Positions 3,801-60,784 of a DNA stretch of 64,000 bases are shown piece after piece. A program made the translations under genes and the position numbers. The notes below the pieces were generated by a model. The model was not told the origin of the DNA. It worked only from the letters and a program-made list of their open reading frames with translations, and made no database searches. Each line of letters begins with the position of its first letter. Position 1 is the first letter of the stretch. Where the stretch lies: the NCBI GenBank assembly GCA_027923505.1, contig BROI01000015.1, positions 1 to 64,000 of the forward strand, given 5' to 3'. Source of the stretch: Mayamaea pseudoterrestris. Lineage: Eukaryota.

Positions 3801-5436
3801 GGGCAATCATTCCGTCAAAACCTGCTAGTGATGCGCTGAATCCTGTGTGCTCGGAGAAAGGGTCGCGTAGCATGTCGTATCGTTGTAAACCTGTCAGAGC
3901 TTCTGCGTCCATTTCGAGCAGCCAGATGACTTTCTTGTAGAACAGTGCGAGAAATTCGATCGTCGGCCGTGACCACTTCTCGGTCAGCCGCATTCCCTGC
4001 AGTTCCGTTCGCGCGCGTTCCTTCTCGATGAGCAGTAGCGCCTTCTTCGTATCGCGTTCGCAATCGTTGGTAGACTTCGCGTCCGTCCATCGTCTTCTTG
4101 AACTGCTGTACTGCGAGTGATGCAGGACGGAGTTCGACAGTGCGTGAGAAAGATCCTGTATACAAACACATTCTTCTTTGCATACGCCTTCTGTTCTTTC
4201 GGTCCCTTTTCCTTCGGGTCATAATCGTCGTCAAAGACTTCGTGGAAGTCATGCAATGTAGCGATGACTTTCAACTCGGAAATCCACTGTTTCCACGAGG
4301 AATCCAGCTTCATTTCTTTACAATCCCTCGCCGAGAACTTGATAGACTTCGTAAATTGGTCTGAATACTTCTCGTCGTCTTCGTCGTCGCCGAGGTCCAG
4401 TATGGATCTCGGTGACTGCCGCATCTTCAAAAACACACTCGTCGGTGGCACCTTGTCGGCCGAGTCAGGCCTCGACTCGTTGCCTTCGTTCGTTAGCGTG
4501 GAGTCCGGATTCGTCCTTCTTGGATTCCGTTTCGCTTTCCTTCGCTGGAGGTTTCGCTCCGCTTCCGCTGCCCACGCTCGCAATGTTGCGCGCTTGGACT
4601 CGTTCCTTCGCTCGTGCTGTGACGAACGTCGCCAGCGTTTCGGTGGTCAGTTGCGACCATGTCTTGATGTCCGGCGACTCTTGCGCCAAATACCATTCGA
4701 TCGCGTTCGTGATCGTGCGTTGTTTCATCTTCGTTAGCGAGTGTTCGCTCGTTTCCTGCGTGACATTGTCGCCATCGTCAGTCGTCGTCGTTGTCGTCGT
4801 CGTGACGTTCCACTTCGTCGCGAAATCGTCGTACTCCATCTCGATCAGTTGCGTAAGCGATTCTACTCCGAGTTCGTCGAATAACTCCTTGAACTGAGGA
4901 TCTTGGAAAACGCCTACGTTCTCTTCGTAAACATGCGCAAACGCCGCGTCTTTCTGCGCGCGAGTTTCCGCCATCGTTGTCGTCGTGACAATGTTCTTGC
5001 TATCACCTGCGGAACTTTCCGGGCCAAGAACCAACGTGCGTCCACGTTACTTCGTAAATCAATAGTACTCTTCGTCGATAAAGTCTCTATGCCGAGGCAA
5101 TGAGTCTCAAGACAGTGTTAATCTTGTAACTTGTAAATCAAATCGTTGCACCTTTCGCTTGTAGCTGTCCTTGGATGGCCAATCCAAGCTTGCAGTTGCT
5201 ACAATACGAGAGACGAATAAATCGCTTTCTTAACTCTTCAAGCTTAGTAAGTCTGCTTGTTTCTACTCTATATCGCACTAGTTTCAGCAATATACTTGTT
5301 GAATCGCTTCGAAGCCGTCGCTGCCACGCATCACGCGATCGTGAGGCTGTGGTGAGCCGCGAGTGCCGCTGTGTCACCCTATCGGACATTCGGTGTGACT
5401 TGCCCGATTTTCGCTGTTTTCGTTCGCATCCTGCAA
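838..5436 (-). mobile_element. Copia-like element B (CoDi-like), frameshifted and 3'-truncated: 5' LTR, gag, protease, integrase; no RT, RNase H or 3' LTR
   Basis: Gag fragments from about 4973, protease ALIDSGANGGLCG (2907-3191), integrase LLSDNAKSE...TTEPGHPEQNPCER (797-2275). The ORF stops at YKFGVRLPRNYKDA where the TRIM begins. Protease-integrase order with no RT between them is copia-type. Confidence 0.88.
5190..5436 (-). repeat. Probable 5' LTR of element B (247 bp, termini TTGCAG...CTGCAA)
   Basis: 6-bp inverted termini. The outer end coincides with the break in element A pol and with the TCGT duplication. Only one copy is present, so the inner boundary is inferred. Confidence 0.7.
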
Positions 5437-8400
5437 TCGTTGGCAATGCCAGCGGCAGTGACGTTGTCAGTTTGTAGTGGTGTAGCTGGTTGAGGATGAC
5501 CCAATTCTTCTAGTAGATGACGAATGGGACAAGCTTCTTTGGCGTTGTGAAAGAGCGCACCAAGCTCCGCCTCGGCGGCACTAGAGAGGACTTCCTTCAT
5601 GATTTGACAGAGCACGTTGATGGCGCCGTTGTGGGGAGGAGGCTTGCTAGTAGGGCCAAGCGGAGACTCGGGCCAGCTGCTGAGGAAATGGAAACCACCA
5701 GCGCATGAGCGAGCCTTGGCGGCGGAGAGGTAGGAGGCATCGCTATGCTGCCACAAACACATTTCACTGGCAGTGAAGCGTACCACAGCATTGGGGTGCG
5801 AGGCGCAGTAATCGAGGACTTGGAGGACGGCGAGCATGGTTTTGTGAGTCGGGGCGGATTGTTTGGAGGCAATTTCGTTGAGCGCTTTGAGTAGTGTTGA
5901 ATCAACTGCGCGCGCGTAATAAAGAAGGACGCCCATTACTTCTTGTACTCGTGTAGCGTCAGCTTTATTGACAGTAGCAGTGTCGTCGGGCGCAGGAGCA
6001 AACTGTTGCTTGGCGCCGTAGACGGGCTTGAGCCAGGCGTGGGGCGCATGCTGGGGCTTTGTCGGCATTTGGTGTTGAAAGCGTTCGAGCGCCCGTTCAA
6101 TGTAGCCAGGCATGGAGATGTCACACGTGCCGTGCTTGTAGTCCCAGTCAATGGTGAGTCCACAGTAGCGAGCGCCAGTGAGATCCAGACTGACTTTGTA
6201 GGTGGCTTGGAGAGCAGCGAGCAAGTGATCCAGATCGGCCTTATCAGTGTATTTGATACCAAAATCGTCAACAACGAGCGAGAAGCAGATTGGTCGCGTT
6301 TCGTGCCGCCAGAAACCAGGCGTGAGCGGCGCGGGCGAGTAACCATGGGCGGCGAGGCGCTTGACGAGTAGGTCATGTGCCAGACGGCCAGCCTGCGGGA
6401 GACCGTACATGCCTTTGGAGATTTCAGTGTAGATGTAGCCGTTGTGCGCCTTGGAGTCAAGGTCGTAGAGCAAGCGGAAAGCGTCGGGAATGAGGTTGAG
6501 CGAGATGCGCATGTACTCCTTGGTGGCCATGGGCGTGTTCAGATAGAAGTCTTTGATGTCGATTGTAGCGAACCGCGCGCCAGGCGTAGAGATAACCGAG
6601 TTGAGGAGCACTTTAACGGTGGTCAAGTCGGCAGCTTTAGTAGCAGTGGCGCCAGGATAGTCGATGCGATCGCCGCCGACCGTGATGCGGACACGCCGAG
6701 GATTCTCCTTCTCGGGGCGCCAGGCGGAGACAATGCGGGCGTATGTAGCAACCTTATTGTCGGGTACGTCGCGATAGTGGATGAAACGGAGCGTATCGGT
6801 GCCTTTGATGTCGTTATAGCCTTGGCTGAGGCGCGCCAGCTCGTCAATCATGGAGGCTTCCCACTCGTTGCCTTCGCTGCACTCGAGCAGTTCGCGGATT
6901 TCAGCGACGCGACCAGTATCGGGATTGATGGCGCTGCCAAGATAGGCGAAACCAAGGCGGTTGCAAGTGGTTTCAATGTCAGTCCATTTGGCGACGCCAA
7001 GGTTGAACTCGCGAAGCGCCGTCATCGCCTTGCCTCTGGGGGTTGAGCGGACAAAGTCGGTAATGGGGCGCTGCGTCGGCTTGGTAGGAAAGATGGAGAG
7101 ACGGCTGGGACGCTTAGGATGAGGAGACAATGGGGAAGGACGTAGGAAACGGACTCGTTTAAGAGCAAGTTGTTCATTGCGGCGAGCTTGTTGGGGGGAA
7201 AGGGATGGCAACTCATCAGCGTGAGCGGAAGGCTCAGTGTGGAGCGGCGGGTCGGCGCGGGGTTTTTTGGTCTTGCGGCGGCGGCGGCGCGGTCCCGTGA
7301 CGTCATCATAGGTGACGGCAGGTGAGGTAGGCTCGTTAACGGACGGTGGCGCGGCGGGCGGGACGGCGGGCGTGGGGACTGGCGAAGGAGTTGGCGTTGG
7401 TGGCGAACTTGGTGAAGCCGCAGATGTCGTATCGGTGACACGAGTAGGTGCGCTTGCCGGAGAAGGGAGGGCCGCCGGAGAGGGGAGGGCATTGTCAGTC
7501 GGCACCCTCAGTTGTGGCGCAAACCCAGGCGGTGGAGCGACAGGCGGTGAGTTGTCCACCCTCAGAGGTGGCGCAGGGTTGGCAGCAGGTGGCTGATAGA
7601 GAGCGATGAGGTCGGCAAGAGCACGGACGCGACTGTCGGTAGTCGGTGCAAGGGCCGCTGGCGGATCGGTGGAGGCAATGGCGGTCTTGAGGTCTTCTAA
7701 GGCAGCATGAATGCGAGAGTCGGGCGTAGAGAGAGGCATTGGCAGTGCAGGAGGAGGCAGCCATGCGACTTGATGGCATGTCCGTTCGGCGTTCGTCTTC
7801 CAAATCCACACGCGATGGCCTCGATACGAGTCAAGAGCTGGACCGAGATACCAACCATCAAGGGCGCGGGGCTCAAAGGAGCCACGGTCTTCAGTAGGAA
7901 TATGAGCAAGAACACGGATGCCGATAGGGGCCAGAGGCGTGCGGTTGAGGTCGAAGAGTCCATGCACTAGCGTGTAGGCAGACAGCTTGGGATTGATGCG
8001 AGAGCCGCGGCACATATTGAGTGTGATTTCAGTCTGGGGAATGAGTTTATCCCACAAATGGAGAGGAAAAGCTTTGTCGACACTGCAAAGGATGGCAACA
8101 AAATGGTTTTCAAACGTGCCAATGGCTCGTTCCGCGAGGTTGCGGCGGTGCAATCCATGACCGACCAGCTGGAAATCTATCTTTTGGTCGTGCATGTAGT
8201 CTTTTAACAGCTGGGAGCATTCGTTATCAAGACGCTGGAGCTGGGGTTGGAGACCAGCGCGAGTGAGGCGTTTAAGAAGGGATTTGTAGGCCTCGAGAAT
8301 GCAGGTGGCGTTGCGATTTTTGAATGGTTCGAGCCAGATATAATTGCTGTCGTAATCATATAGAACCATGATGTATTGATTCCCGTTGAGCGAGGGATTA

Positions 8401-9248
8401 AACACTTTTCCAGTTTGATCAGTATAGATTTGACCAGTAGGCTTGAAAAAGGAGGCGTAGCAGTGGTGGCGCGTCGCAACGGTTCCTTCTTGGAGAGGAA
8501 AGAACACGTCGCTGTCGTCGTCGTCTGCGTCCACGTTTGTTGTTGTTGACTTGGTGGAGCGAATGCCTTGACGCAAAGCTTTCATGTGGCCTTTATGCAT
8601 GGCAATGGAGGCGGGCGGGTGCTTGCGGAGGTTGCTGGCGGTGAGGCCAGGAAAATGCGGGAGCAAGCCTTTGGAAAGGGCAGCCTCAAGGGTGCGGAGA
8701 CTGGGCGAGCCAAGGGAAGCATGATAGAACTTGAGGAGCTCAGGCAACTTGGGATCGCCAATGGTAGTAAGAGCGCTCTGGGGCAAAGGCGCAGGGAGCT
8801 CCATTTGCCAGAGGCCAGTGGCTGGACACCGAGCGCCACTCAGGACGAGCTCTTCTTTATAATGCACGAGGACTCGTTCCTTGTCAAGGGAAATGAGGCA
8901 GCCTGCATCACAAAGTGTGCCAAGGGAAAGTAGTGAGTGAGTTGATAAAGCAGGAACAATATGAGCTTTAGTGGCCGACTCGGGAAGGCCGGGGATGTTG
9001 AGCGTTGCCTCATGAGTGGAATGCATGAGGGTGCCGTTGGGAGTTTGAATTGCAAGTGGGGTTGTCGTAGCAATCTTGTTTAAGATGGGAGCGCTAACGG
9101 TGACAAAGTGGGCAGAGGCGCCACTGTCAGCTATGAGGGTAAAAGTAGGATTGGCGGGAGGACCAGTGATAGAAGATAACGAGAAACAAGTACTATAAGC
9201 ATGTGACATGGTGCTATAGGTGTTATCAATCACTGGCGTCCCTCCATC
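5437..9248 (-). CDS. Pol of copia element A (protease, integrase, RT, start of RNase H), interrupted at 5437
   Basis: IADSGASAHF protease; YTDQTG...RLDNE...NLAERAI integrase; IDIKDFYL, KGMYGLPQAG and LVVDDFG RT; HSDASY, SAAEAE and TDN RNase H motifs. Open frame begins right after the gag stop. Confidence 0.93.
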
Positions 9249-10376
9249 TCAGCTGCGAGGGTTGGCGGGATTGCGAGGACTCATCTCGGTAAGGGTGCCA
9301 CCCATGGTATTGTCAGCGGTCGCCGTGCTGACATGATTTGGACCAGGGTTTTGGCAAGTAGCGCTAGTGTGGCGGTAGTTGAGACCAAAGCCATGAGTGT
9401 GGCAATAGTGACGGGCGCGTGGTGAAGCGGTGGGCGCTGCCGCTGGCGTAGGCGTGATAGCTGGAGCAGGCGTGGTGGGTGTCGCAGGGGTGACACGAGT
9501 AGGTGCGGGCGTCACATCGCGAATGGCGGCCATTGCCTGCTGCAATTGGCGACGGAGGCGAGTTAACTCGGTGGTTTGTGCGATGTTGGCGTGATCCTGA
9601 TAGCCAGCTTGGCCAGCCGTGCGGTGCTCCAAGCGCTTGTCGTTGGCCTTGTTGAAACGGGACTGGAGATTCTCCATGGTGCGGTCCACCTCGTCGACAT
9701 CGCGGTCGTAGGCGGCGAGATCGGCGGCAAACACGCCACTGTTGTTGAGGACGAGGAGCGTGTCGTGGATCTGTTGTTCCGGGGGAATGGGCGTGCCGGC
9801 ATCTTCGGCAAAGTCGTTGATGTCGGTGATGCGACTCCAAATGCGCTCGATGGGATCGTTGGGATCCCATGGCGTGAGGAGACGAAGAACGTTGTCTTTG
9901 CGTTCCTGGTTGGAAACGCGTCCGTAGGCGGTGGTGAGATGCGTGAGGATCTGCAGCGTGGTGAGATTGGCGTAGATGGAACGACGGTTTCTGAGGACGG
10001 AATAGTAGTCTTCGTCGAGAGCAGCGAGTAGGCAAGCCTTGAGAGCAGTGTCGGCAACGAGCATGAGCTTGAAATCGTCAGATTTTTCCTTGTGAATGCG
10101 ATTGCGCTCAGTCAGTTGGTTTTGAGTAAGGCCAGCGACTTGAAGACCGAGCTCCTCGGGGCGAGCTGGGCGGTCAAAGGGAGCGTCTGGATCAGGGAAG
10201 CGTTCGAGGAGTTCGTCGTCCGTCATGCACAGAAAATCGTGGCCGTTGTCATCAGAACGGGCAGGAATCTTGCGAGCGTTGGCGCGGAGTTGAGCAGTGG
10301 CAATGGTAAGAGTAGAGTAAGTAGGCTTGCCTTCGATGATGGTCAAAGGATCGAGCGTAGGGAGCGTGATGTTCAT
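9249..10376 (-). CDS. Gag of copia element A
   Basis: Long ORF directly upstream of pol. First ATG gives MNITLP. C-terminal YCHTHG...HTSATC...H zinc-knuckle-like motif. Ends in a TGA in frame with pol. Confidence 0.85.
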   Translation of the reverse strand: MNITLPTLDPLTIIEGKPTYSTLTIATAQLRANARKIPARSDDNGHDFLCMTDDELLERFPDPDAPFDRPARPEELGLQVAGLTQNQLTERNRIHKEKSDDFKLMLVADTALKACLLAALDEDYYSVLRNRRSIYANLTTLQILTHLTTAYGRVSNQERKDNVLRLLTPWDPNDPIERIWSRITDINDFAEDAGTPIPPEQQIHDTLLVLNNSGVFAADLAAYDRDVDEVDRTMENLQSRFNKANDKRLEHRTAGQAGYQDHANIAQTTELTRLRRQLQQAMAAIRDVTPAPTRVTPATPTTPAPAITPTPAAAPTASPRARHYCHTHGFGLNYRHTSATCQNPGPNHVSTATADNTMGGTLTEMSPRNPANPRS

Positions 10377-10477
10377 CTTGGGATGGGAGGCACGGAGGAG
10401 GCGGCGGAGAAGGGTACGGAGGAGCTGGAGGATTCTGTGAGGAGCAATGGTAGCGGGTGGGTGAGATGTAACAATTC

Positions 10478-10660
10478 TGTTGAAGGGCCGCAAGGTACTA
10501 CAGCAGACACTCGAAGCAAACTAGTTCAATAACGTTGAATTGTTACATTATGAGCTGATGGCGGTAAGCGCCAGCAGACTCTTGCTAATCGAGTGGCTGA
10601 GAGCAAAGCGATGGAATGGATGGTGGACAGAATGGGATATTAATGAGTCATGGCGAGTGT
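10478..10660 (-). repeat. Probable 5' LTR (R-U5 part) of element A; outer boundary unresolved
   Basis: Ends ...CCCTTCAACA about 100 bp before the gag ATG. No matching TGTTG start is found before element C coding sequence takes over near 10690, so it is probably truncated. Confidence 0.55.
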
Positions 10661-10689
10661 CTTCTCCGCCTCGTAGCTTGCGACGCCTA

Positions 10690-13600
10690 CTGGCGCGTGA
10701 GCTGCGGCGCTGTGACCTCCTGAGAGGCGGGCCATCTGGCTCCCTTGTGGGCTCGGGAGTGGGACCGTCCGGGCTCCCTTCTTCGTTGGCCGCTGGGTCT
10801 ATTGGGTCGGGCGCGTCCGGTTGTTCTGGGACTCCTTGGGCCCCCGGTGTAGTGGACCCGGCCGGTCCGTCGGGCTCCTGGGGTTCAGCGGCTTCTTCGA
10901 ATGTGACCTGTGCCGGGGGACCGTTGAGGGTTTCGTTGCCTGGGTGCAGCGTCTCCTGTGGGGAGGCTCCCTTGTTGGCGGCCAGGAAGTGGCACTTGTC
11001 CTGCCAGTGTGAAGTTGGTAGGCAATCATTGAAGGACTTGCGCATGGTCTGAAAGCTTGGGTCAAAGTGTACGTGAAACTGTGGGGAGGCGAGGCCGGTT
11101 TCGAGTGACAGTACCAAGGCCACCGACCTGGCGTGGTGGGCTGAAGGGCCCAGGTATACCCCTACCCGCGCTCGGTCTACCCACTTGTCCTTGCTGGTCA
11201 CGTAGGTGTACACGGGGCACCCGAACGGGGAGTAGTGCTTGGGATTGAAGGAGGCAGGGGCCCCAGTGAAGGTCTCCACTGGTATGCTGTTGTCTTTGAG
11301 GCCTGGCGTGATGTTCTTGGTCTCATTGGCCAGTCTTAGCGCGTAAGGCCACAAGTTGGCATTCACCGCAGTGGGCCATCGGCGGGCGGCGTGGATCATC
11401 ATTGTTCTGGCTTGATCCTGTAGCTCCCTGATGTGTCGCTCGGCTATACCGTTCTGAAAGTGGGCATTGACGCCACAGAATGTGAGCACTTGGTTGGCTT
11501 GCGGTACGCCGTGCTTGCCAACTTGTCGGCAAACCTCCATTTCGGCTGCCGTAGTGTTGACTCCAACCGACGAGCGTACTCGACTGCCTTTAGTTTCTTC
11601 GCGGGTTTTGCAAGTGGATGAAGGAAAATCTGCTGAACTGGTCCACAAAGATAGTGGCGCACATGTAGCGGCGTTTAGTCGGTATGCCTCTCAGTTGGGC
11701 TATCAATCCTGGAGTATAGGAGACCAGTTGGTCAACCGAGACACATTCCCCAGGCCGGGTGGCCAGTACCTTGGAGTCCTCTAGCTGGGCTTGCGTAGGC
11801 TTGGTCCTCCATGGTCTCTTCGTGGCCTTGCCGTAGAGGCAGCTGGTGCACAGAGGCACTGGACACTTGGCTAATCGACTTGGGAGGATGCCCATGCGGG
11901 ACATTGCTTGTATTCACCTTGGGGACGCATGGTTGAGCTTATGGTGCCAGCGCAGGAATTCTGCCGAGGCATCTTGCGGTCTGGTGTCCTCCTCGTCCGG
12001 GCTAACCTGGTCTTGGATCGAGCCTCGTCCGGTCGGGCCGTCAAGCTGGAAATCCGTTGTCAGCGGCTGGGTGCGAGGCGGCTCGGCCGGAGTGACCGTG
12101 GGCGATGGGTGCCCGTCATCGGGCGGGGAGGATCCCATGTAGTCATTCCCCCCCCGGATGCCAGGCGGAAGACTGTGCTGGGAGGTCGTACGGGAGCACG
12201 GCCGCGGCGTAGCAGGTAGGATGCTCGTCGCTGACCGGTGGGATGGTGGCGAGAAAAGCGGAGTAGTTGGCAAAGCCGGGTGCCGAGTTGAGAATGCCCA
12301 CATTGGAGGCGGGATCCAGGGGCACCGTGCGTTGGCGTCGGCACTGATCCCAGTAGAGGACAATGCGATCCGAGTAGGTGAGTGAGTAGGTGCCATCCTT
12401 GTCCGGGTCGTGATCGTTGGCCAGTTGTGCCCAGTGCTGGGGGCTCAGGAGCCGACTGTGCGCTTTGGCGTCGTAGATCATTTTGGGGATGTCGATGGTG
12501 TAGGGGGCTCCCTCGTCGTCCTCAATGGTGTAGCGGCCATGACCCTGGGCGAGTGGGCTGCCAGGCGAGCCATGGATGCCGGTGAGGGTGTGCTGGATCG
12601 CCTTTGGTGGCGAGTAGAAGTCCGATAAGTGGCTGGTGATGCAATAAGATGCGCAATTGTCGACTCGAAGTTGGAGGGAGTCGGTATCAAAGCGGACTTT
12701 GCGTGAGGAGGAGCGGCCGGTGGGGCAGTGGGAGGCGAACGCTAGCCATGGTGACAAGCGTCCATCGGTGCGCGTGGTGGCCCATTCGACGAGTGTTGAC
12801 AGTGGTGTCCCACCGTTGTGTTGAGTAGGTGCGCGTGTCGTATCTGGAGGTGCGCGAGTGTGACTGTCCGCTGAATAGGTGAGGCGTAGTTGTGAATCTC
12901 CCTTGTTGACTGCGCTGGTAGGAGGTGAGAACGGCGTCGCCTTTGGGTTGCGATAAAGGTAGCTCTTATAGGCGTTGTACGCTCGCGCCCGTCGTATGAA
13001 GTCAACTGGGACGAAGGGAGCTTGACGTGTGTTGTAGCGCGTGGGTGTCTCCCTTTTAGGACGATGGCCGAGGTGTGCGTCGGCCGTGACGCTGATAGCC
13101 CAGCAGGCAATGTGATAGTAGCAGAGGCGACGGGCCCAAGTGCGTGACTTGCTGCGCCGAAGGTGGTAGCTGAATGGGTTGACGGACTTGCGCTTGCGTC
13201 GTTCGGCCTTGTAGGGAGGCCATGGCCATGGTAGACGGTGGAACCAGCTCAGCGCTCGGTCCCATAGTTGAAGCGGACTGGCCGAGGAAGGTTTGAAGGT
13301 GTGGCGCGAGTTGGTGCTGGCGCTCTGGTGCGGTGTAGCTGGTGAGTGGCAGATGAATCTCAGGGCGTTCAGGAGTTTACTCATCAGCCCGTAAAACATT
13401 AAGATAAAGTTCCACGGGCATCCCCATCAGCTGCTCTCGTCGCCGCTGTCCTGTTGGTAGATGGCCATTTGCGCTTGGAGCGTCGATGCTGGGGTGGCTG
13501 TGGCGGCCTCCGGTGTGGCGGCCTCGGGGGTCGCAATCTTGCCTTCCTTCTGTGCCTTGTGGCAGTCGGCCGCTGCGTGCTGGCCCCACTTGGCGTGGTG

Positions 13601-15226
13601 CGGGCACCAGGTCCAGTCCAGCTCCTTGCCCTTGGCGTTCTTGGCCTTCTTGTGGAGCTTTCCATCCGTTGGTGCGGAGTCTCCGTCCGTCCTTGACCCG
13701 GTCGGCCCTCGCGTGGCGCCTTTGCGCCGATCTCGCCTTGGCTTCCCTTTGCAGGGCTTCGTCCCTTGGTGGTCGTTCTTCTTTCGCCGTGACTCTTGGC
13801 GTTACCGATAGCGCGTCGAGTGCGGCTGCGGTAGTCATCCGTTTGCTTACGCGCGTCGCACCGTTGTCCACGGCGACGGTGGTCGCAGCAAGTTGGGTGT
13901 GGTCTGCCCCCGGTTCTGTAGATCCTGGTCAACCCTGCGCACGTGGTCGTGAAACTTCTCGATGTTGTAGTCAAAGACTTCCGCTAGCTTGGTTCCTGAG
14001 CAGTCCATGATCTCCTTGTGGAGGTTGAATATGGTGGCCTTGGAGTCGAGCACCGTCTTGGTAATGATAACCATGAGGAGGGCGATGCCCGAGGCAGTGA
14101 CCACGTCCGAAGCCATTCCTTTGAGCTTGTACTCGCTAGCCGACAGGCGGATGCGCGCCTTCATGTCTGGGTCCAGCGACTGGATAATGGTCGAAGCCAG
14201 TTGGTTGTCGGCCTGAGCTTGGCGCGTCTGGGTCCCAAGGAAGGACTTGGCGTACTCTTGGACCTTGGTCATGTTGAGCTTGCCGTACTCCGAAATGAGG
14301 TTGGCGGTAGTCAGGGTGGTCCCCTGTTCGCACTTGGTGAGCGGCACGTCGTAAACGTTCCAGTTGAACTGAGTTCCTTTGTCGTCCAGGTCGGCGAGAA
14401 ACCCTGAGAGCTCCTCCGACTTGCCAGAGTACTTCTTGTCGAGTCCCTTGGAGGATTCGATGAATACCTTCATGTTCTTGGCATCGCTAAAGTTCATTGG
14501 CTGGTTGGTCGCCAATGGCGTAAGCTGGTACGCACTGCTGCTGGGAGCGGCCACCGCTGGTGGAGCACCTTGCTGCGCGGTGGCAGCCAAGGCTTCAGCG
14601 ACTGCGGCTGCGATGGCGGCTTGGAGAGCAGCCTGGTTGGCTTCCTGGTCCTGGAGGCGACGCACTTCGGTGGCGGCGGCAGCGGCTTCGTTGGCTTGCT
14701 GCATGGCTGCAATGCGTGCAGTCATCTCGGCGATCTGGGCGGCGTGGGCGTCCATTGCTTGTTATGTTTGTTGCGGGTTGCGCAGAGGAAGCGTGTTGTT
14801 ATGGTAATTCAGTCGAGGTCAACTGAAGGGCTCGGTGGTTACTACTTGCAAGTAACTAGAAATCAAAGAAGGTTTGCTTCGTTTGGTAACTGTGAGTGTT
14901 TAGTGTTACTGCTATAATTTACTGCCTTTGCAGGCCGAGTCTCGCCGAGGTGCGGGCTTGCTTGGGCCTGCTATGTATGATAGCCAGTGAACTTGCCGTC
15001 TTGCGGGTAATTAGGGTGCTTTGGCGTTTGTAGCCATTATTAACTGGTGATTGAACAGATAGTTAGAGAGTAAGTCAGTTGGATGCTTCGCCATCCCCTT
15101 GCCAATGGCGAGGCCTGCATCGCCATGGTCAGTCTGTGGCGAGGCTGGTTTGTGTGGACCGTACCGAATCCCGCCGATCTGTCGATGTCGCATGGACATC
15201 CATCTATGTCGCATACACATCCAACA
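10690..15226 (-). mobile_element. Copia-like element C, frameshifted and truncated after integrase
   Basis: Gag 14755-13427 with WCPHHAKWGQHAAADC. Protease FDTDSLQLRVDNCASYCIT. Zinc-binding WHHKLNH...CTSC. Integrase VSVDQLVS...IFVDQFS...FQNGIAERHI. Ends near LRRSQR. Confidence 0.88.
14794..15226 (-). repeat. 5' LTR of element C (433 bp, TGTTG...CAACA)
   Basis: Canonical 5-bp inverted termini. Inner end lies 39 bp upstream of the gag ATG and is followed by a tRNA-complementary segment. Confidence 0.75.
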
Positions 15227-15299
15227 CCTCGGTGTAAGCTTGCATAATATATACAGGTGTGTACTGCCAACAGTCGTATGTGTGCATCGCCAAACAACT

Positions 15300-16150
15300 T
15301 GACACCATCATCTGTAGCTCCCAGTTTGTCTCTCAGCACCCAACTTAGCAGCTTGCCATCAAGTGTGCCATCAAGTGATCCAAGCACCAAGCCCGGTGAA
15401 TAATCTAGCGCAGGACCCAGTCTCCTTCCCGGTGCAGCATCAAGCTTGCCACCCTCTGTAGCTCCCAGTCTGTCTCTCAGCACCCAACCCAGCAGCTTGC
15501 CATCAAGTGTACCATCAAGTGATCCAAGCACCAAGCCCGGTGAATAATCTAGCGCAGGACCCAGTCTCCTTCCCGGTGCAGCATCAAGCTTGTCACCCTC
15601 TGTAGCTCCCAGTTTGTCTCTCAGCACCCAACCCAGCAGCTTGCCATCAAGTGTGCCATCAAGTGATCCAGGCACCAAGCCCACTGAATAATCTAGCGCA
15701 TGACCCAGTCTCCTTCCCAGCGCAGCATCAAGCTTGTCACCCTCTGTGGCTCCCAGTTTGTCTCCAGGCACTCAACCCGGCAGCGTGCCATCAAGTGTGC
15801 CGTCAAGTGATCCAAGTGCCAAGCCCAGTGTGTGACTCACTTAGTGCAGGGCCCAGTGTCCATCCTGCAGCAGCAATGTTGTGCCCCTCTGTGAGTTCCA
15901 GTTTGTCTCTCAGCACCCAACCCAACAGCTTGCCATCAAGTGTGCCATTCAGTGACCCAAGCGCCAAGCCCAGTGTGTCATCTAGCACAGGACCTCAACT
16001 CCTTCCCAGTGCAGCAACAAGCTTGTCCCCCACTGTGGATCCCACTTTCTTACCCAGCAGTCACCCTAGCAGCTTGCTATCAAGTGTGCCATCAATTGAT
16101 CTAAGCAGATTTTCCTCCAAACATTCACCCATGCAGCTTGCCATCAAGTC
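15300..16150 (+). repeat. Degenerate 144-bp tandem repeat (about 6 units) built from 12-bp subunits; decayed Pro/Ser-rich coding repeat
   Basis: TGTAGCTCCCAGT-type motif recurs at about 15313, 15457, 15601 and 15745. Plus strand gives PSSLPSSVPSSDPSTKP with an in-frame TAA in several units. Confidence 0.8.
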
Positions 16151-16389
16151 AGGTCTGACCCCAGTCCCTCGGTGCAATGCATCGCTACGTACGGTAGACA
16201 ATGAATGCCTCAATACCGCTCCGACGTGAAAGCTCAAGGCGCGCCGCTCCGCGCTCGATCATATCGCGTAATTCTAGATTCTTGACATGGCATGGAGCTC
16301 AACCTTTTGTTTCAATAAGAGAAGAGCATACTGTTTCGTTTTTGGATAAAGGAGCTTTGGGTTGATTGAGTCTATGCTGAGCGAGCTTC

Positions 16390-18072
16390 ATGTCGGACAC
16401 CATGTTGATATTACGAACGCTCCTGCAGGATCGGAACGAACGCGAGACGAATCCATTCATATCCATCAACCAAGCCAATGCCACGCTTCTTAATCAAGTT
16501 GACGCGCTGCAACAAAAGTGCGAAATAGCAGATCGAGAGCTGGTCGCCCTTCGTACACAACTATCTACTAATCCGTCCAAGGCTGGGAAGATGGCCGCGG
16601 CTGCTGCGCTCAGGAACGAGACACGACTTCACGAAAAATTGGAAAAATTGCAGGAGGAATGCAATGCGACACTAAAAATAGAAGCACAGGAGAAGGCGCT
16701 TGCACTTGAAACAGCTCATTTATTGGCCCAGCAAAAAGATTTGGTTGCAGCCCAGGAAATTCAGCTGCAGCAACAGCAAGCTGAACTCGAGCAAACGCAA
16801 AGGGCAGTAATACACTTGCAGGATCAAGTAAAAGAGGCACAACGAGCGACTCTGCTAGCGGTGAAACAGTACGATGGATTAAAGGTAACCATTCGTCAGC
16901 TGCAAAAAGAAAATGATTCGCTGCAAAAGGAAAATTATACGCTAGAGTTTCGACTCGTCGACGACAAGAGGTTACTTGGCGACGAACTCAACACGCTGAC
17001 GGAAACAATTGAGTCTTTAAAGCGAGAGGTTGACATGCTTAGGAGCTTAAAGGCGCAAGAAGAACAGCGAAGTAGAGGATCGTTTGGTGGCACAAATCCT
17101 GCACAGGCTGAGTCTAAGACCGCTCAGGACGACGGGCGTCAAATTGGGGATTTTGGAGTTATTGTACCGAATGAAATTAAGCTGAATATTTTCGCCCATG
17201 CGATGGAAGGAACTTGTTTGCGGTACGATACTTCCGGAATTGGACTGTTGGCAACATCGAGTAGTGATGCCACCGTCAAGGTTTTCGACGCCAACCTAGG
17301 ACATGTGCTGGCGACGTTACGCGGGTCACCAGGTAGTTCCATCATTAGTTGTGACCTATCGAACAATCTCGTTGTTGGTGCTGGGTCAGACAAAACTTGC
17401 CGTGTTTGGAACTTGAGAACGCAAAGAATGATACATCATTTAGTCGGGCATGCGCAAAAGGTTACTTGCGTGCGCTTGTTTAATGGCGACAAATCAGTTT
17501 TGACAGCATCCTCGGATCGCTCCCTCAAGGTTTGGGATATATCACTGAAAACATACAAGCAAACGGTTACTTTACGGCATAGTTCAACTTCAAACTGCGT
17601 TGACGTGGCTTCTGATTCCATGTCGGCCGTCAGCGGTCATTTAGACGGTGGGCTAAGGATCTGGAACTTGCATTCGGGCGAGCGAACGGCGGATATGCCA
17701 GGAGTACACGAAGCGGCTGTAACATCGGTGCGATTTCATCCTCTGGGCAATGGGCATATTCTCACTAACGCAGCAGACTCTTGTCTGAAGGTAGTGGATG
17801 TGCGGACGGGCATGGCTATCCAAACATTCCGGCACCTGGGGTTTCAAACTGTGCACAACTGGTCGAGCTCCGCATTTAGCCCAGACGGCAGATACGTCAT
17901 TGCTGGTTCCAACTCTACAGGAAACATTTACGTGTGGGATACGACAGATGGATCGTTAAAGAAAACTCTGGAGGGTCATACAGTGGGAGTCTGTGCAATT
18001 GATTGGGGCCGGGGATCGCAGCAACAAGTCGCATCAGTTGATCGGATGGGAATGTTGATTTTGTGGGCCTGA
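16390..18072 (+). CDS. ATG16: Autophagy protein ATG16 (ATG16L-type: coiled coil plus WD40 repeats)
   Basis: N-terminal LQDRNERE..PF helix, long coiled coil, then WD40 repeats (DKTCRVWN, HLVGHAQKV, DRSLKVWD, SAFSPDGRY). Confidence 0.85.
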   Translation: MSDTMLILRTLLQDRNERETNPFISINQANATLLNQVDALQQKCEIADRELVALRTQLSTNPSKAGKMAAAAALRNETRLHEKLEKLQEECNATLKIEAQEKALALETAHLLAQQKDLVAAQEIQLQQQQAELEQTQRAVIHLQDQVKEAQRATLLAVKQYDGLKVTIRQLQKENDSLQKENYTLEFRLVDDKRLLGDELNTLTETIESLKREVDMLRSLKAQEEQRSRGSFGGTNPAQAESKTAQDDGRQIGDFGVIVPNEIKLNIFAHAMEGTCLRYDTSGIGLLATSSSDATVKVFDANLGHVLATLRGSPGSSIISCDLSNNLVVGAGSDKTCRVWNLRTQRMIHHLVGHAQKVTCVRLFNGDKSVLTASSDRSLKVWDISLKTYKQTVTLRHSSTSNCVDVASDSMSAVSGHLDGGLRIWNLHSGERTADMPGVHEAAVTSVRFHPLGNGHILTNAADSCLKVVDVRTGMAIQTFRHLGFQTVHNWSSSAFSPDGRYVIAGSNSTGNIYVWDTTDGSLKKTLEGHTVGVCAIDWGRGSQQQVASVDRMGMLILWA

Positions 18073-34938: not shown

Positions 34939-35028
34939 TATGGCGTGCGTCGTCAATTGCTGCGACTAATTGTATCTGTAAGAAGGCTCGTTCTGTCTCG
35001 AGGCAACGTAATGCAGGCAGCAGCAGCA

Positions 35029-35392
35029 GTGAGCAACACGCTGGGATGCATGCGCTGATTTGGATCGCGCGCAGCGATGGATGGTCATTCGAGCTGGAAG
35101 GGGGTGTTCACCCCCACCGATCGCCGTGGGCCTTTGGTAGCTATCAATTGCAAGCCAGAGCATATAGCTGTGCAATAGTCCCGTAGCACATTAGACTTCC
35201 ATACCAGCAAAGCATGCAGTGAAACATTGCGACAACAGTCAGTAATAGTATTTACAATATTTATTACAATCACCCTACTCGCCATTGTGCCATGCCCCGC
35301 ATCCATGTGAGAAAAAAAGATGAGCATTTTACAACTACGATTCATCAACGTTCCTAATCCAAATGCCGACGCTTTTCTGTCCCTCCTCGTTG
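35029..35392. repeat. 364-bp duplicate of 44352-44715 (last codons of UTP20 plus downstream DNA)
   Basis: Colinear at offset 9323 with about 7 substitutions counted by eye. Confidence 0.95.
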
Positions 35393-42200: not shown

Positions 42201-44351
42201 TCAGCACAAAGAGTAACGTCTCGATAGCGACTCATGATAGCCGGTGGAAGCTGCTCAACAATCGCAGGCTTCACCAGATGCGACGCGCGACGCGTCGTCT
42301 TTCCTTTTAACGAGCCAACATCTGGTCCAAAGATGTGCTCAGCAGCCAGGATGTCGGCCTTCGTCACAGGACAGTTCGGCAACTGATTGCTAGTAACGAT
42401 GCGCAGGTAATCCTTGAGGCTTGGCCGTCCAATTTTGATTTGCAGTTCCCTAGCTCTAACAGCGCGTAAATAGTCATCATTGGTGTAGTTAGTACGGTTA
42501 TCGTCTACCGTAGTCAACATCGCCACTCCATCCTTGACATCGCTGCGCTTGCCCTTCGAAAAGCTCTCGCAAACATACAGCCCAGAGTCAGTCTCGACAA
42601 ACTCTCGCTGCTTACCATCCGGCTTCTCCACAACGAACATTGGACGATCCACGCCGTGCATGAGATACTCCACGGTAAACTTCTTGCGGACTTGCGCCAA
42701 ACTCAAAATGTTCGCCAGTCCCTGCGGATACCACCACACCGGACCATAGCCCTCCAGGTCGCCCATCATGTTCGTCCTTACTGTACCAGCGTTGCACTTG
42801 ATCACCATCCACGTTGGCACCGGGCGAATGTTCGTCAGCATCTTGGCGTTGCAGAACAGATCCACTGTCGACTGATTGTCCAAGAGCACAGCCTTCTTCG
42901 AGATGTTCACCTTCGGCGGCTGCGCGAACATGTATCCGACCTCATCGTCGTCATCGCTTTCTTCCTCGCTACCCAGCGTGAAGTGCTGCGCCCCACTAGC
43001 CTCTGCAGCCGGCGCACTCTCCGTAGACTCCGTTCTCGTAGGACAGTCTCGCTGCACATGACCAACCTGTTGACAGGTCCAGCATCTGGGAGGGTCACGC
43101 GCTGTACCAGTCGTGTGAAACGCCACGCCCTCGTTCGTTGGCAACGTGGCTTCTCCATCCGCATGCTCACGACGCTGCATGATGTTGTATGCATCGTGGA
43201 TCGTCAACGGGAAGTTGTCGTGCCCGTCGAGGTAGCAGTTGCGCAAGTGCTTGCAATACCCAGCGTATTCGCCCGTTGCGCCACGCACGAAAAGCATCGC
43301 AAGCTCGAGCTCTTCGGCGGCCTTGATATCCTCCTTGTTCGCCTTGTTACGATTGTCATCCTTGGCAATGTTCAACGCCACAATCTCGTTGTGCATCGTG
43401 ACGCCAACCGCCTTCGCCACGTCTGCCAGCGTGACCATGCTTTCGTAATATTTCTGCAGGCTTTCGCGCGCTCCTTGAGTACGTCCGAACAACTCAGCTT
43501 GAATGTCCACGACTTGATCCACAAGTTTGCAGCGCCCTTCGTACGTATGCGAGATCTCCTTGATAATCGCCAGCAACTTAATTCCGTCCGTGTCCTCCTC
43601 GGCGTCTCGGAACTTGGCGTGCGACTTGACACGATCCTTCATACGCTCCGTGCATTGTCCATGCAACACGGCGTAGAGACCAGCGAGGAAGTCGGAGTAT
43701 ACACGCACGCGCTCGACATGCTCTTTCTTGTCGGCCTTGTATTCCTCGAGCATTATGGACCAGTCCGAGTCCGTCGTGTCGGCATCCTTCGTTGGACGTG
43801 CAGGCTCGTCAGGAATCTCCAGTTCCACGTTGCGCATGCCCTTGAGCAGCTCCTTGGTATATTTCTTGTAGGAGCGCCCGACGAAAGTGATGATCTCGTT
43901 CGTCGTACGGATGAATCCATCGGGATCGCGCGAACCGTTATAGTCGTAGATGAATCCAGCGAGCGTCGGCTCGCTTCCTTGGAAATTTCCACTCGGCGCA
44001 CGACTCGGTCCGTTGAGTCTGTTACCATTGCCTTGATTCCCGGAACGATTCCCAGCACGATTCCCACGACGATAATGACGGTTGCGTCGGTTTCCTTCGC
44101 TTGCTGGCGGAGCGGGAGGTGCACCTCCACCGCTCGACGCCGCTCCTGTCGTCGGAGTATTGCTCGTCGAAGACATGTCTTTTCACTCGCTTCTTGGAGA
44201 AAATGTTGGATCTAGAATATATCTTGCGCGCCCTTGAAGCGACACTAATGATTAAGCAGAACAGAGTCAATAAAACCACTTTACTTAAATGTGACCGTCT
44301 TCGTGACGTCACCGCTGCCGCTTCGGTTTGGGTTCTCATCCATGCTCAACA
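39255..44351 (-). mobile_element. Full-length Ty1/copia element D with LTRs 44204-44351 (5') and 39255-39465 (3')
   Basis: LTRs TGTTG...CAACA, identical except for a 63-bp indel. Purine tract AAAGGAG just before the 3' LTR. Palindrome GTGACGTCAC in U3 (39417-39426). Flanks ATGGG and GTGAG do not match, so there is no TSD. Confidence 0.96.
39395..44176 (-). CDS. Intact single Gag-Pol polyprotein of element D (1593 aa)
   Basis: CWTCQQVGHVQRDC knuckle, LLDNQST protease, ADIMY...DGEF...EIER integrase, VDVPGAF/ALYG/WHVDD RT and VDASYA...STESE...QDN...ADFFTKPL RNase H, in copia order. Confidence 0.96.
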   Translation of the reverse strand: MSSTSNTPTTGAASSGGGAPPAPPASEGNRRNRHYRRGNRAGNRSGNQGNGNRLNGPSRAPSGNFQGSEPTLAGFIYDYNGSRDPDGFIRTTNEIITFVGRSYKKYTKELLKGMRNVELEIPDEPARPTKDADTTDSDWSIMLEEYKADKKEHVERVRVYSDFLAGLYAVLHGQCTERMKDRVKSHAKFRDAEEDTDGIKLLAIIKEISHTYEGRCKLVDQVVDIQAELFGRTQGARESLQKYYESMVTLADVAKAVGVTMHNEIVALNIAKDDNRNKANKEDIKAAEELELAMLFVRGATGEYAGYCKHLRNCYLDGHDNFPLTIHDAYNIMQRREHADGEATLPTNEGVAFHTTGTARDPPRCWTCQQVGHVQRDCPTRTESTESAPAAEASGAQHFTLGSEEESDDDDEVGYMFAQPPKVNISKKAVLLDNQSTVDLFCNAKMLTNIRPVPTWMVIKCNAGTVRTNMMGDLEGYGPVWWYPQGLANILSLAQVRKKFTVEYLMHGVDRPMFVVEKPDGKQREFVETDSGLYVCESFSKGKRSDVKDGVAMLTTVDDNRTNYTNDDYLRAVRARELQIKIGRPSLKDYLRIVTSNQLPNCPVTKADILAAEHIFGPDVGSLKGKTTRRASHLVKPAIVEQLPPAIMSRYRDVTLCADIMYINKVPMLVTFSRSIRFATVEVIQNRTLPVMLKAIESVLKIYARGGFRVVAALMDGEFAPMLGALADLGVALNATSEDEHVGEIERFIRVVKERVRATYNTLPFKHVPARLVIEMTKSAVFWLNAFPNERGISKDLSPRTIVTGQTVDFNRHCKYEFGQYVQTHESHSNDMQARTIGALALRPTGNVQGGFYFLSLSSGKVLNRGHATPLPMPDDVIERVHRLARQQKANPGIVFMDRHRVAEAAEPVMWHEDDAEDDDDSDYDDDDDDDGADGAIEGVPNDEDGEAIDGELDDAPAVDDGEIEGVPDEGEIEGVPAAADEEDFDARYGPRTGRYGLRARKPRSFAHLFTLDAAEEVSEPLVTAQMNMRQGLKAFGDAGVEAVRKEMQQLHDRHVMKAVPQCTLTPQQRKDALAYLMFLKRKRCGTVKGRGCADGRKQRAYTAKEDAASPTIATEAIFLTAIIDAMEGREVAVVDVPGAFMQAEMDELVHVRFTGKMVELLLEIDREMYEPCVTMENGEKVMYVELLMALYGTLRAARLFWEKLSAKLLEWGFEKNPYDPCVCNKIVNGKQITVGWHVDDLKISHVDVSVVDEFIAQMDEEFGKETPMNKSRGKVHDYLGMVLDYTKPGEVAINMVDYVKNILHHAPDDMDGTAATPAASHLFQISENPVMLSEAKKQIFVTIVMQCLYLSQRARPDIRTAISFLSTRLQQPDEDDYKKAARVIKYLRGSVDMVLTLKADQSGIVQWWVDASYAVHPDMKGHTGGTMTLGQGSVYSTSAKQKLVTRSSTESEVVGVHDVLPQLLWTGYFLKAQGFGVKDTKLYQDNMSSMLLEKNGRSSSTKRTRHMNVRYFFVKDRVAAGEVNIEHCPTGDMVADFFTKPLQGAQFGKLRNLVMNLASSSKYYSAQRSVLSMDENPNRSGSGDVTKTVTFK

Positions 44352-44676
44352 GTGAGCAACACGCTGGGATGCATGCGCTGATTTGGATCGAGCGCAGCGA
44401 TGGATGGTCATTCGAGCTGGAAGGGGGTGTTCACCCCCACTGATCGCCGTGGGCCTTTGGTAGCTATCAATTGCAAGCCAGAGCATATAGCTGTGCAATA
44501 GTCCCGTAGCACATTAGACTTCCATACCAGCAAAGCATGCAGTGAAACATTGCGACAACAGTCAGTAATAGTATTTACAATATTTATTATAATCACCCTA
44601 CTCGCCATTGTGCCATGCCCCGCATCCATGTGAGAAAAAAAGACGAGCATTTTACAACTACGATTCATCAAAGTTC

Positions 44677-47600
44677 CTAATTTAAATGCCGACGCTTTTC
44701 TGTCCCTCCTCGTTGGGTTCTTCTTTCGTCCACCCGTCGCTTGTGTCGCTGCTTTTCGCGCTCGTGCTTTTGAATCTTGCGCTTTGCTGACGCTTCTGGA
44801 TCTACAATAGCTTCAGTTTTTATTTCAAGCTTGCGCTGATCCTTCTTCTCCTGAAACCTAGTCTTAACTGCACCATACGCCACAACAAACTTATCATTCG
44901 TGTCGAATTGCTGCTCCAGCATGACGAGAATATCCTTGGCAAGTCTCGATTCCTCAGTTGCCGCATCCCCAAGGGGACGCTCATTTTGTTGTACTAAATG
45001 AGGAAGGTCGAGCACATTGCGCGTCTCCAATTCGGACCGGTGCAAAGGTTCGATAATCAATGGCAAATCACCCTCGATTATGTCCGGACAACAAGTTGCA
45101 AAAGAAGCAAAACACATGTATACGGCCTTGCGGCGCTTGGATCCCTTGTTCTTCGCGCTTTGTGATAACCGCTTCAGCACCATGGATGCTCCGTCACTAG
45201 AATTTTTAGAATTGCCGACAATGAGACTAGGACATCGATGAATGGCCTGGAGAACCCAGGTGAGCGATTTGGCCAGATCAGTTGATAAGTCGTCGTCGTA
45301 TTCATCCTCGTCCAGACTGGCCAAGCGACATAGGCCTCTCGCAAGTTCCTCCAGCGATCCTGGATGTTTGGCGACAAATGAAATGCTGCTCATCTTGTCA
45401 GCGACGAGCTCGTTAATGACAAACAAGTTAAGATACTTTGCCAATAGCCGACACGCTGAACGCCGCACCCATGGGTGTTTAGACCAAAGAGCACGTGACG
45501 TGCCAACCCAAAGATTGCTTCTCGGGACAATTATGTCGTTCAGTCCTTCATAGAGCTTGTCCAGATCGAGCAGCGAGAAATAGACTAGCTCCCAGTCTGA
45601 TGAAGGATTGTGCAGGATCGAGTCCATTACACAAAGCATCCTATCAAGCTCTCCCTGCCGACGCAAAAAATCTGAGCATGATTCTACGAACAATCCAAAC
45701 AGCTGCAACGCTGTGCGCACGAGAGTCTCTTGACCGCTAGACCATCGCAAAACGTATTCATAGCAAAGTTGCAGCGATTTTTGAGCGAGTCGGCCCAGCA
45801 ATGATCTGATGCAGCTCGCAACCGCATTTCGACACTCTTCGGACAAATCATTTGCCAGTTGCAACGTCAGCGGTAGAAAGAAGAGCTGAAGATGATGATC
45901 TAAAAGCTCCAGCGGCAATCGCTTAATCACTGTCGATAGCAATTGGATTGCTGAAAGGCGCCCATCTGCGTACTCGTATTTAATGTTTAAGACGGCCTGC
46001 TTCAGGTGCTGCTCAATCCTTTCCGTCGACATGGGATATGTAAGCAGAAAATTGATAAACGTTGTGGTGCTTTGTTCACGAAGTGATGGCTTGTGGCTTT
46101 TCGCCGTTTGTTGCAGAAGAGTTTCCATCAGATCGTAAAATTCTGATGAAGCAAAGCGACGCGACATTATCGCCTTTAACAGGCGAAAAGCAGGGTTGTA
46201 ATTATCGGAATCAACGATGGAAGCTCGAACAAAGGAAAGTAGTAATTCCATCTGTGCATTATCTAAAAGCTGATGACTTGTAGTAGCGGCATCGCTTCCG
46301 TCTAAGCCTCTCTTTCGTTCAAAATCTAGCAAATATGCCAACATTTTATAACAGGACTGAGCAGTTTCGTTGTTCTGGTTGCGTGCAGACCCAGATAATG
46401 TCAGTAATTGAACAGCCTTTGATGACAAGGAGGTGGCGTAGACCTCGAATGATGGAAGGTCAAAGCTAAGAAGTAAGCACAAAGTTTTTAAGGCAAGAAA
46501 CACCACCTCTAAATCGCTGCATGTGCAGACACAGGCTGTGAGGATTGGAACAAAGACATCAAGCTTAACCAAATCCACCTGTTCAGACCGAACCTGCTTC
46601 ACAGCAGAATGCAACAACTGCAAGCCGAAAAGGACAGCACTAACACTTGCAGGGTTGTTTATTGATAGCGCACTACTGTCCACCAATCGCAAATGTCGAT
46701 TTGCGCCCGTGAGCGTCGGTGCGCTGCAACCGTCCTGCACAGTAGCAAGGTTTCTTTCCGACAACCTTTTGGCCAGTCGCGCTTCATTTGCAGTCGAAGA
46801 AAATCCTGAGACAGACGGCCGCCATTCAGCGACGCTGAGTTGGCGTGAGCAAGAATGTACCATGGTCGCATTGGCTAGGCTCCCGCTAACGTGAAGCGGC
46901 GTGCAAGCATCGTCATCGCTCTCCAATCCGGCAATAAGATAAAGTGACGACGTGACAGCTTCGACCGAATGTCGCCTTATGAAGGGTTCTATCGTAGCAT
47001 GCACAAATGCAAGGGCCTCGTCGCTTCCAAGACTCGAGTTCCGTGATAGACCAGTGACGATGCGCGTCAGGCACTCTTTGATCCTCCTGATCAAGCCGGC
47101 GCTGATTGTCGGATTTTTCAGCCGCTCCAAAAAAGGAATAACAATGACATGAACAGTACTTTTCTCTCCAGTCGATGGCTTAAACAAAATTAAGCTTGAA
47201 ATAATTTCAAGCGAGTGGTAGCTTTTCGATCCAGCTGCTTCTTTCACGTAGCGAACCTGGTTGCCTTCTGCATCTTTTCGCTCTTGTGCATCACCAAAGA
47301 TGTCCTGTTGTATCAGATCTATCATTCCTGGGACTGCATTGTCAAATCCAATCTCAGCTTCTTCATTTACTCCCAGGTCAGGAACTGTATATGATAGAGA
47401 AAGCTCCAGCAAAATGGAATGAATTGTTGCAGCTCGCACGTGCAGCTGATAGCCCTCCTTCAAAGTAACGGCAAGCTCTCTAATGATATCTGCGAGAAAC
47501 GTTATATCAAGTGACACTGTCATGTGTGCGAGAGTTGTTCGAGCTAGGTCCCTAACATTCGAATCTCGGTTCTTAAGCATGCCGCATATAACTGTTAGCA

Positions 47601-59769: not shown

Positions 59770-59942
59770 AATCTAGAACTTGATGGTTGACATGGATCGA
59801 GACTCGAGACGAACAGTAAAAATGAGTCGAGAAAGTGGAGGAAACGGATGTCGCAGCGAAACCAAAGGTAACGATGCGACGGCAAAAAACCAGGGTAGTC
59901 GTACATAGCGCAGCCTAAATATATCGATGTTGACATATTCTT

Positions 59943-60784
59943 TGTTATTTGGGCACTTGCATGGCTTGATATATAAGCATTTGATTGTCATGGCATCTTC
60001 TGGCTGAGACTGGTGAGAAACATTGCAGTCTATTGAGACACCAGCCCGGCATACCATCTTGTAGCGCAGCCTGACTAATGATGCTGGCACCATTCTTGTG
60101 TAATTTGGGCACATACATGGCTTGGCGTATGGGCCACTTGAATGTCAAGACATCTGCAGGCCAAGACTGGTTACAAATTCTTACCAGTCAAGCATTGCAG
60201 TCTACTGAGACTCCAGCCAGGCACATCATCTTGTAGTGCAGGCTGGAAATGATGCTGGCAAGATTCTGGTGTATTTTATGGGCATACATGGCTTGATATA
60301 TCTGAATTTAAATGTCAAGGGATCTATGGGCTGAGACTGGTGAGAACTTCTCACCAGTCACATTACAGCCTACTGAGATGCCAACAGGGCATACAATCTT
60401 GTAGCACAGCCTGAATAATGATGTTGGCACCATCCTTGTGTGATTTTGGGTGTATATGTGGCATGTTATATGGGCAATTAAATGGCAAGGCAACTGCAGG
60501 CTGAGACTGGCAAGAAGTTCTCACCAGCCCCATTGCAGTCTACGGAGACAGTAGCCATGCACATATCATCTTGTAGTGCAGCCTAAATCATGATGGTGGC
60601 ACCTTCCTTGTGTGATTTGATTGTATAAATGACATGATTTAGGGACAATTGAATGTCAAGGCAACTGCAAGCAGAGACTGGTGAGAAGTTCTCACAAGTC
60701 ACATTGCAGTCTACTGAGACACCAGCCAAGCATACCATCTTGTAGTGCAGCCTGAAAAATGTTGTTGACACTATTTGGTGTAAT
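59943..60784 (-). repeat. About 5 degenerate copies of the 169-bp satellite in reverse orientation
   Basis: Reverse-complement motifs CCATCTTGTAGYGCAGCCTG and GGCTGAGACTGG recur about every 170 bp. Confidence 0.9.

Follow-up and report, generated by a model that had tools for sequence, protein, structure and literature searches.

The closest described counterparts of the site reported here belong to Hemivirus-type elements, namely Drosophila copia, yeast Ty5 and the '1/2 tRNA-Met' elements Osser, Bryco and Gymco-II of plants, which likewise combine a Ty1/copia organisation with use of the initiator tRNA-Met. In these elements, as at the site in the window (the whole 64,000-nt stretch of Mayamaea pseudoterrestris DNA that was analysed), pairing is with an internal part of the tRNA, so that a 5' fragment with a new 3' end would act as the primer. 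In Hemivirus-type elements the tRNA is cut in the stem or the loop of the anticodon arm, with which their site pairs, whereas the site in the window pairs with nucleotides 10-24, some 15 nt nearer the 5' end of the tRNA. The half-tRNA primer is about 39-40 nt long, against about 23 nt for the primer implied by the window site, and the references behind half-tRNA priming are said to be those of Kikuchi in 1986 and Ke in 1999. The window site therefore has the complementarity to the inside of a tRNA that characterises half-tRNA priming, but its complementarity does not fall on the anticodon stem-loop.

Other known systems share single features with this site. Ty1 and Ty3 also use the initiator tRNA-Met, and, in the available parts of their descriptions, the element RNA additionally pairs with the D arm (Ty3) or through extra boxes (Ty1). 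In those elements, as far as the same parts go, the D-arm contact is accessory and the native CCA end primes, whereas here there is no 3'-end site and the D-arm duplex lies at the U5 border. Self-priming in Tf1 and Tf2 is likewise non-canonical and needs an RNA cut to provide a 3'-OH, but the primer there is the element's own 5' end, and the window site has no such complement. In its available text, Neumann et al. (2019) distinguishes three primer types for LTR retrotransposons, with half-tRNAs only where the cut is in the anticodon stem and with the D arm not among them. The available part of Donnart et al. (2017) describes a hairpin site in the fungal GalEa elements, which is unlike the window site, and Maumus 2009 (PMC2806351) says nothing about tRNA or primer sites. 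A D-arm primer site was not found described in the full-text literature searched, which consisted of main texts from a library with few subscription journals; to this extent the initial annotation, which did not recognise this priming mode as one already described, was right. The D-arm site would be new, while priming by an internal tRNA fragment as such was already known.

On the plus strand, positions 14780-14793 of the window read GCGCAGAGGAAGCG and continue with TGTTGT at 14794-14799. On the minus strand ...CCATAACAACA leads into CGCTTCCTCTGCGC (14793-14780), which is followed by AACCCGCAACAAACATAACAAGCA and then by the ATG of gag (Table 1); the bases directly 3' of CGCTTCCTCTGCGC are AACCCGC... 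and the leader beyond the site reads AACCCGCAA. The exact motif, with its 13 fixed bases, occurs a single time on the two strands of the 64-kb window, for which simple arithmetic gives about 0.002 exact matches. ARAGORN found no tRNA gene in the 64-kb window, and an Rfam search of positions 14000-16500 returned nothing relevant at or near the site.

Table 1. Features of the site-bearing fragment and of its surroundings in the window.
Feature	Position	Strand	Remarks
Candidate primer-binding site CGCTTCCTCTGCGC	14780..14793	-	Complementary to nt 10-24 (D-arm) of initiator tRNA-Met
Leader, 24 nt, from site to gag ATG	14756..14779	-	Starts AA; second A conserved in relatives
Putative 5' LTR	14794..15271	-	3' end ...ACAACA at 14794 placed from relatives; 5' start is a guess
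gag ORF, 302 codons from ATG at 14755	13850..14755	-	Homology to gag of relative L160
Protease-region homology	12221..12715	-	tblastn with L160 pol aa 149-313; frame broken relative to gag
Integrase homology, two tblastn segments	10974..12078	-	48-53% identity to L160
Low-complexity integrase tail and truncation point	10551..10973	-	No RT or RNase H of the same lineage beyond
Second, different copia element	5382-10550	-	Abuts the fragment; gag ATG near 10376
144-bp tandem repeat	15295-16150		Adjoins the putative LTR
LTR pair	35024-35392 / 44347-44715		369 bp, 97.8% identical, spanning an element of ~9.7 kb
Tandem array	59906-64000		Unit of ~169 bp, both orientations, copies 74-94% alike

The site corresponds to nucleotides 10-24 of an initiator tRNA-Met (iMet) of eukaryote type and agrees at 13 of 14 bases with the human as well as the yeast molecule; the sole mismatch is the base opposite a variable nucleotide of the D-loop, which is C and U in human and yeast iMet. 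An antisense oligonucleotide to human tRNA-Met(i) runs ...CAGCA-CGCTTCCGCTGCGC-CACTCTGCT, with CA on both sides of CGCTTCCGCTGCGC, a further human probe agrees with it, and a probe for yeast tRNAi-Met runs ...GCG-CGCTTCCACTGCGC-CACGG. Human elongator tRNA-Met differs at these bases (CGCTACCTACTGCGC). A scan of viral contigs with a 16-mer, in which the base opposite the D-loop position was left free, gave 121 matches, 47 of them inside predicted tRNA genes and none at a locus with a retroelement; in these genes the motif starts at tRNA nucleotide 10. Re-reading of the sequence thus upholds the D-arm complement that the initial annotation had seen at 14780-14793, and its identification as the iMet D-arm agrees with the human and yeast probes and with the tRNA-Met(CAT) genes among these matches.

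Among the distinct environmental iMet-like tRNA genes, 34 of 39 carry a GATCGAAAC T-loop. The D-loop nucleotide that pairs with the variable base of the site is A in 19 of the 39, G in 14, T in four and C in two, and it is to the 19 that the window site is identical at all 14 bases (16 of 16 if the final CA of the LTR is included). No published iMet with A or G at this position was found in the literature searched. For the host's own tRNA-iMet, A would be predicted. The 16-nt duplex has a computed energy of -32.6 kcal/mol.

A different small RNA with the same 14-16 bases, for example a piece of a pre-tRNA or the transcript of a tRNA-iMet-like module, might take the place of iMet as primer, as sequence alone cannot separate sources that share an identical D-arm, and the 47 tRNA genes that contain the 16-mer include a tRNA-Pro. 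The other 46, however, are all tRNA-Met(CAT), and the site is kept across very divergent elements (see below), presumably in many hosts. Such conservation fits a universal molecule like iMet better than an RNA confined to one lineage, and I regard a primer of other origin as unlikely.

The window copy itself is dead: of a Ty1/copia element of M. pseudoterrestris it retains a 5' fragment (LTR?-PBS-gag-PR-IN). Frameshifts interrupt it, RT/RNase H and a 3' LTR are missing, and a different copia element adjoins it; as far as they are preserved, the domains of the fragment follow the copia order of gag, PR and IN. Its gag is 100% identical to a hypothetical protein of M. pseudoterrestris, the sole match in the protein search (near lengths); with the gag of L160, one of the relatives introduced below, it shares 23% identity (E 1e-11). 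Fragment and neighbour had been taken as one element ('element C') in the initial annotation, which has to be corrected: a truncated 5' fragment is joined to a different copia whose integrase shares 20% identity with its own, and the RVT_2 match in the window belongs to this neighbour, the site-bearing fragment having lost its RT. The neighbour has a PR-IN-RT-RH frame at 9248-5382 that is cut inside RNase H near 5430. Two 11-nt segments upstream of its gag form a perfect inverted pair, TGTAACAATTC lying at about 10548 and GAATTGTTACA at about 10478; next comes ...CCCGCTACCA, which resembles a tRNA 3' end in sense orientation.

No second copy of 14701-17000 occurs anywhere in the window, so that the window copy is truncated and its LTR end cannot be fixed from the window. 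Thus, of the proposal that ACAACA is the LTR end directly before the site, the order of the sequence stood, and the boundary is backed by the relatives and not by a second LTR copy in the window. The 5' start of the putative LTR has two guessed options, TGTTGG at about 15271 or at about 15225. In contigs from public runs, depth is about 163 over the internal part of the fragment, about 390 over 14196-14797 and 600-970 over 14765-15217. The contigs of two runs stop at 14797, which fits a repeat border nearby but not to the base: with 31-mers, a stop there would put the fork near 14767 and not at 14793/4, which counts against an exact boundary.

The same runs gave some further observations. At 13709-13885, in the gag tail, contigs of runs X1 and X2 carry 262 other letters instead of the 177 bases of the window; the stretch is of low complexity, and the cause is a difference between strains or else a problem of assembly. 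The gag stretch 14384-14639 is present with one difference, at a depth of 3, in run X6, which belongs to the same study and is labelled as another organism; this reflects library carry-over or a shared element. The summed contig depth of the 144-bp repeat is about 10,000-46,000, compared with about 160 for single-copy sequence, which makes this repeat a major satellite of the genome.

The integrase piece of the window has 3969 relatives in a representative library. Relatives were picked by integrase similarity only, regardless of the site, and an alignment of 30 of them, used as the query, retrieved 78 metagenome loci of 37-63% identity; viral contigs searched with the gag and with the integrase alignment gave no loci. 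Judged by their sequence, the relatives are plain Ty1/copia elements with a gag related to that of the window. RVT_2 is found in L160 (E 5e-39) and L184 (E 1e-36), and L160 is laid out as gag_pre-integrs (385-433), the integrase match (about 554-733) and RVT_2 (932-1170). ARAGORN, run on 40 of the 78 loci, found no tRNA gene in them.

Conservation of the PBS had been named in the initial annotation as a check on its reading, and in these integrase-chosen relatives the site is indeed conserved: CGCTTCC-(1 or 2 bases)-CTGCG is present on the coding strand of 46 of the 78 loci and on the other strand of none (0/78). A search at fixed length that allowed one substitution accounts for 44 of these loci, to which L183 and L186 add a variant with one extra base. 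The integrase match is preceded by the site at a distance of 2.5-3.5 kb, except in circularly permuted contigs (the element being about 6 kb), where the site is found about 3 kb downstream of the match. At 36 of the 46 loci a long frame follows within 900 nt; its start lies 16-695 nt beyond the site, and at 30 of these loci no more than 180 nt beyond it. None of the 32 loci without the site spans the junction, and they were counted neither for nor against it: 31 have less than 2533 nt, the smallest distance observed, on the upstream side of the match, and the sequence of L160 starts 39 nt ahead of its own gag ATG. Many contigs of 6.0-6.9 kb (e.g. L123, L126, L153 and L176) are circularly permuted or tandem forms of one element with a single LTR in mid-contig, with a repeat period of 5990 in L153 and 6640 in L176; these are probably cases in which the assembly collapsed two LTRs.

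These counts bear on whether the site is a chance resemblance in decayed sequence. When up to two mismatches are allowed, the motif occurs three times in the window compared with 2.18 times expected from shuffled sequence, which is not unusual, and at this tolerance chance would do. The exact match, however, is unique in the window and stands in the right place and on the right strand, and the contrast between strands among the relatives is complete. A unique exact match together with strand-specific conservation contradicts chance, to which I assign a negligible probability.

The relatives also show where the LTR ends. LTR pairs are present in L148, L192, L153, L161 and L194. In L148 and L192 the second LTR copy is 100% identical to the first and ends in ...ATCACA before unrelated DNA, and the first copy is followed by the site; in L153 (second copy 81% identical) and L161 (82%) the other copy again ends in ...CA before unrelated DNA. 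It follows from these four loci that the base preceding the site is the last of the LTR; wherever a second LTR copy defines the end, the site lies directly at it, as had been proposed for the window. In L194 the second LTR copy is followed at 7334-7345 by CGCTTCATCT, which repeats part of the primer site, before unrelated DNA begins, and the boundary is blurred there. In the 38 rows of the conservation profile described below, the base before the site is always A and the one preceding it is C in 32 rows and T in six, a pattern with which ...AACA/CGCTTCC in the window agrees.

It might be argued that the 14-mer is conserved as a signal of another kind, be it an accessory tRNA contact, a packaging or dimerisation site or the target of a tRNA fragment, and that priming takes place elsewhere. 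For Ty3, contacts with the tRNA D arm beyond the priming duplex are described, as are extended ones for Ty1, and the site ends in a GCGC palindrome. Yet in four relatives the LTR ends one base before the site, where the 3' end of a primer must sit, no tRNA 3'-end complement adjoins an LTR, and an anticodon-arm complement is absent from the 78 loci. TGGTA(G/T)C, the complement of the tRNA 3' end, occurs in four of the 78 loci, in each case inside coding DNA and never at the LTR; GGTTATG(A/G)GC, taken as the anticodon-arm complement, occurs in 0 of 78; and from 150 nt before to 400 nt after the site, complements of the T-loop were found in 0 of 47 cases as a 9-mer and in three of 47 as a 7-mer. 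An accessory contact of the Ty1/Ty3 type does not explain a duplex that coincides with the U5 border and has no further site in its vicinity, and a role apart from priming seems to me distinctly improbable.

Two further modes of priming can be set against the same junction. Classical priming from a tRNA 3' end is rejected, as the sequence after the LTR starts with CGCTTCC and not with TGG.... In self-priming of the Tf1 kind, the site would pair with the 5' end of the element's own transcript, but no inverted complement of the site exists in the 1.8 kb upstream of it in the window, the coding strand of the relatives carries such a complement in 0 of 78 loci, and a self-primer need not equal a tRNA. 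Contradicted in the window and in the relatives alike, self-priming is very improbable. The reading that remains preferred is priming at the site by a fragment of iMet.

The pattern of variation within the site is informative in its own right. The conservation profile comprises 37 representative contexts and the window (38 rows), drawn from 40 distinct contexts, a representative being retained when more than 12 of its 64 positions differed. From -1 to +12 every position but +7 (T in 31 rows, C in seven) is invariant, and +13 is C in 31 of the 38 rows, while the flanks carry less than 0.4 bit at most positions. The invariance of the motif is in part by construction, as sites with more than one mismatch were not collected; its sharp edges and the strand asymmetry are not products of construction. 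The variable base of the site is the one opposite the variable D-loop nucleotide of the initiator tRNA, and its two forms, T and C, are the complements of A and G, the bases seen most often at that position in the 39 tRNA genes; L183 and L186 have CT here. The integrase tree has 69 rows, namely the window and the 68 loci left after 10 with short or interrupted matches had been dropped; the site is found throughout it, and the C form requires at least six changes for eight rows, sometimes between sister lineages. Such a pattern would be expected if the site were recopied from the primer and if hosts differed in their D-loop base.

Beyond the site, +14 is unconstrained (A in 21 rows, T in nine, C in five and G in three), and +15 is A in 32 of 38 rows. 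In 11 of 41 distinct contexts the site is followed by x-AAGT, and in two by AAGT without x; AAGT at that offset is found in 12 loci, compared with 0-4 at other offsets. It is possible that pairing resumes with U8 and part of the acceptor stem past an unpairable base, which would fit the pattern at +14 and +15. In known initiator tRNAs, G9 is m1G.

The presence of the same site in 46 distant relatives suggests that copying in these elements starts from an unusually short piece of initiator tRNA. I consider it fairly probable that 14793-14780 is the minus-strand PBS of a diatom-type Ty1/copia lineage, at which pairing with the iMet D-arm would allow a 5' fragment of about 23 nt to prime. Under this proposal the site would pair with the D-stem and D-loop (nucleotides 10-24) of the host's initiator tRNA-Met, and reverse transcription would start from a 3'-OH at about G24. 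As the U5/PBS border marks the 3' end of the primer, and the last LTR base directly precedes the site, a primer terminus at about G24 is expected; the final CA of the LTR could in addition pair with U25 and G26, so that G24, U25 or G26 may be the end. The primer would thus be a 5' piece of tRNA-iMet of about 23-25 nt, cut in the D-stem, and a cut before annealing would fit as well as one after it. To my knowledge, a D-stem cut that yields a usable 3'-OH has been described for no retroelement. The piece itself would be like tRF-5b, the name of this class of fragment in the available parts of tRNA-fragment surveys; for diatoms, the available text of Rogato 2014 gives tRNA fragments mainly of 19-20 and 30-33 nt and contains nothing on iMet.

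Each cycle would, in addition, copy the site anew from the primer, and this would account for the restriction of variation to the D-loop position. That a tRNA or a fragment of it is the primer, where it would be cut, and that the site would be rewritten per cycle I infer from the site, which is conserved, is identical with iMet D-arms and, in relatives, stands at the end of the LTR. The short 5' tRNA-iMet fragment that the initial annotation had put forward as the primer thereby gains support, since conservation, the position of the LTR end, the place of the variable base and the failure of the rival modes all point towards it.

A wider version of this proposal is that LTR retroelements have a fourth kind of minus-strand primer, a 5' fragment of the initiator tRNA of about 23 nt, cut in the D-stem, and that an entire, deeply branching clade of diatom-type copia elements uses it. 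The site would be rewritten from the host tRNA each cycle and so report the host's D-loop base, and its far border would be set by the modified G9, with an unconstrained or skipped base opposite nucleotide 9, A opposite U8 and, in some lineages, AAGT opposite nucleotides 5-8. I give this wider version an even chance of being correct.

Since the window copy is a dead fragment, the value of the finding lies in the family. Textbooks and surveys name three ways in which LTR retroelements start DNA synthesis, namely self-priming and priming by a whole tRNA or by a half-tRNA whose cut lies in the anticodon stem, and a D-arm site would add a further cut site in the same tRNA. Standard PBS finders seek tRNA 3' ends and would report such elements as having no PBS; annotators would gain a marker of 14 bases with which to locate the 5' LTR end in a large copia clade, and the variable base may act as a host tag for such elements in metagenomes. 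If the proposal is true, retrotransposition in diatoms would be linked to the making of short 5' tRNA fragments.
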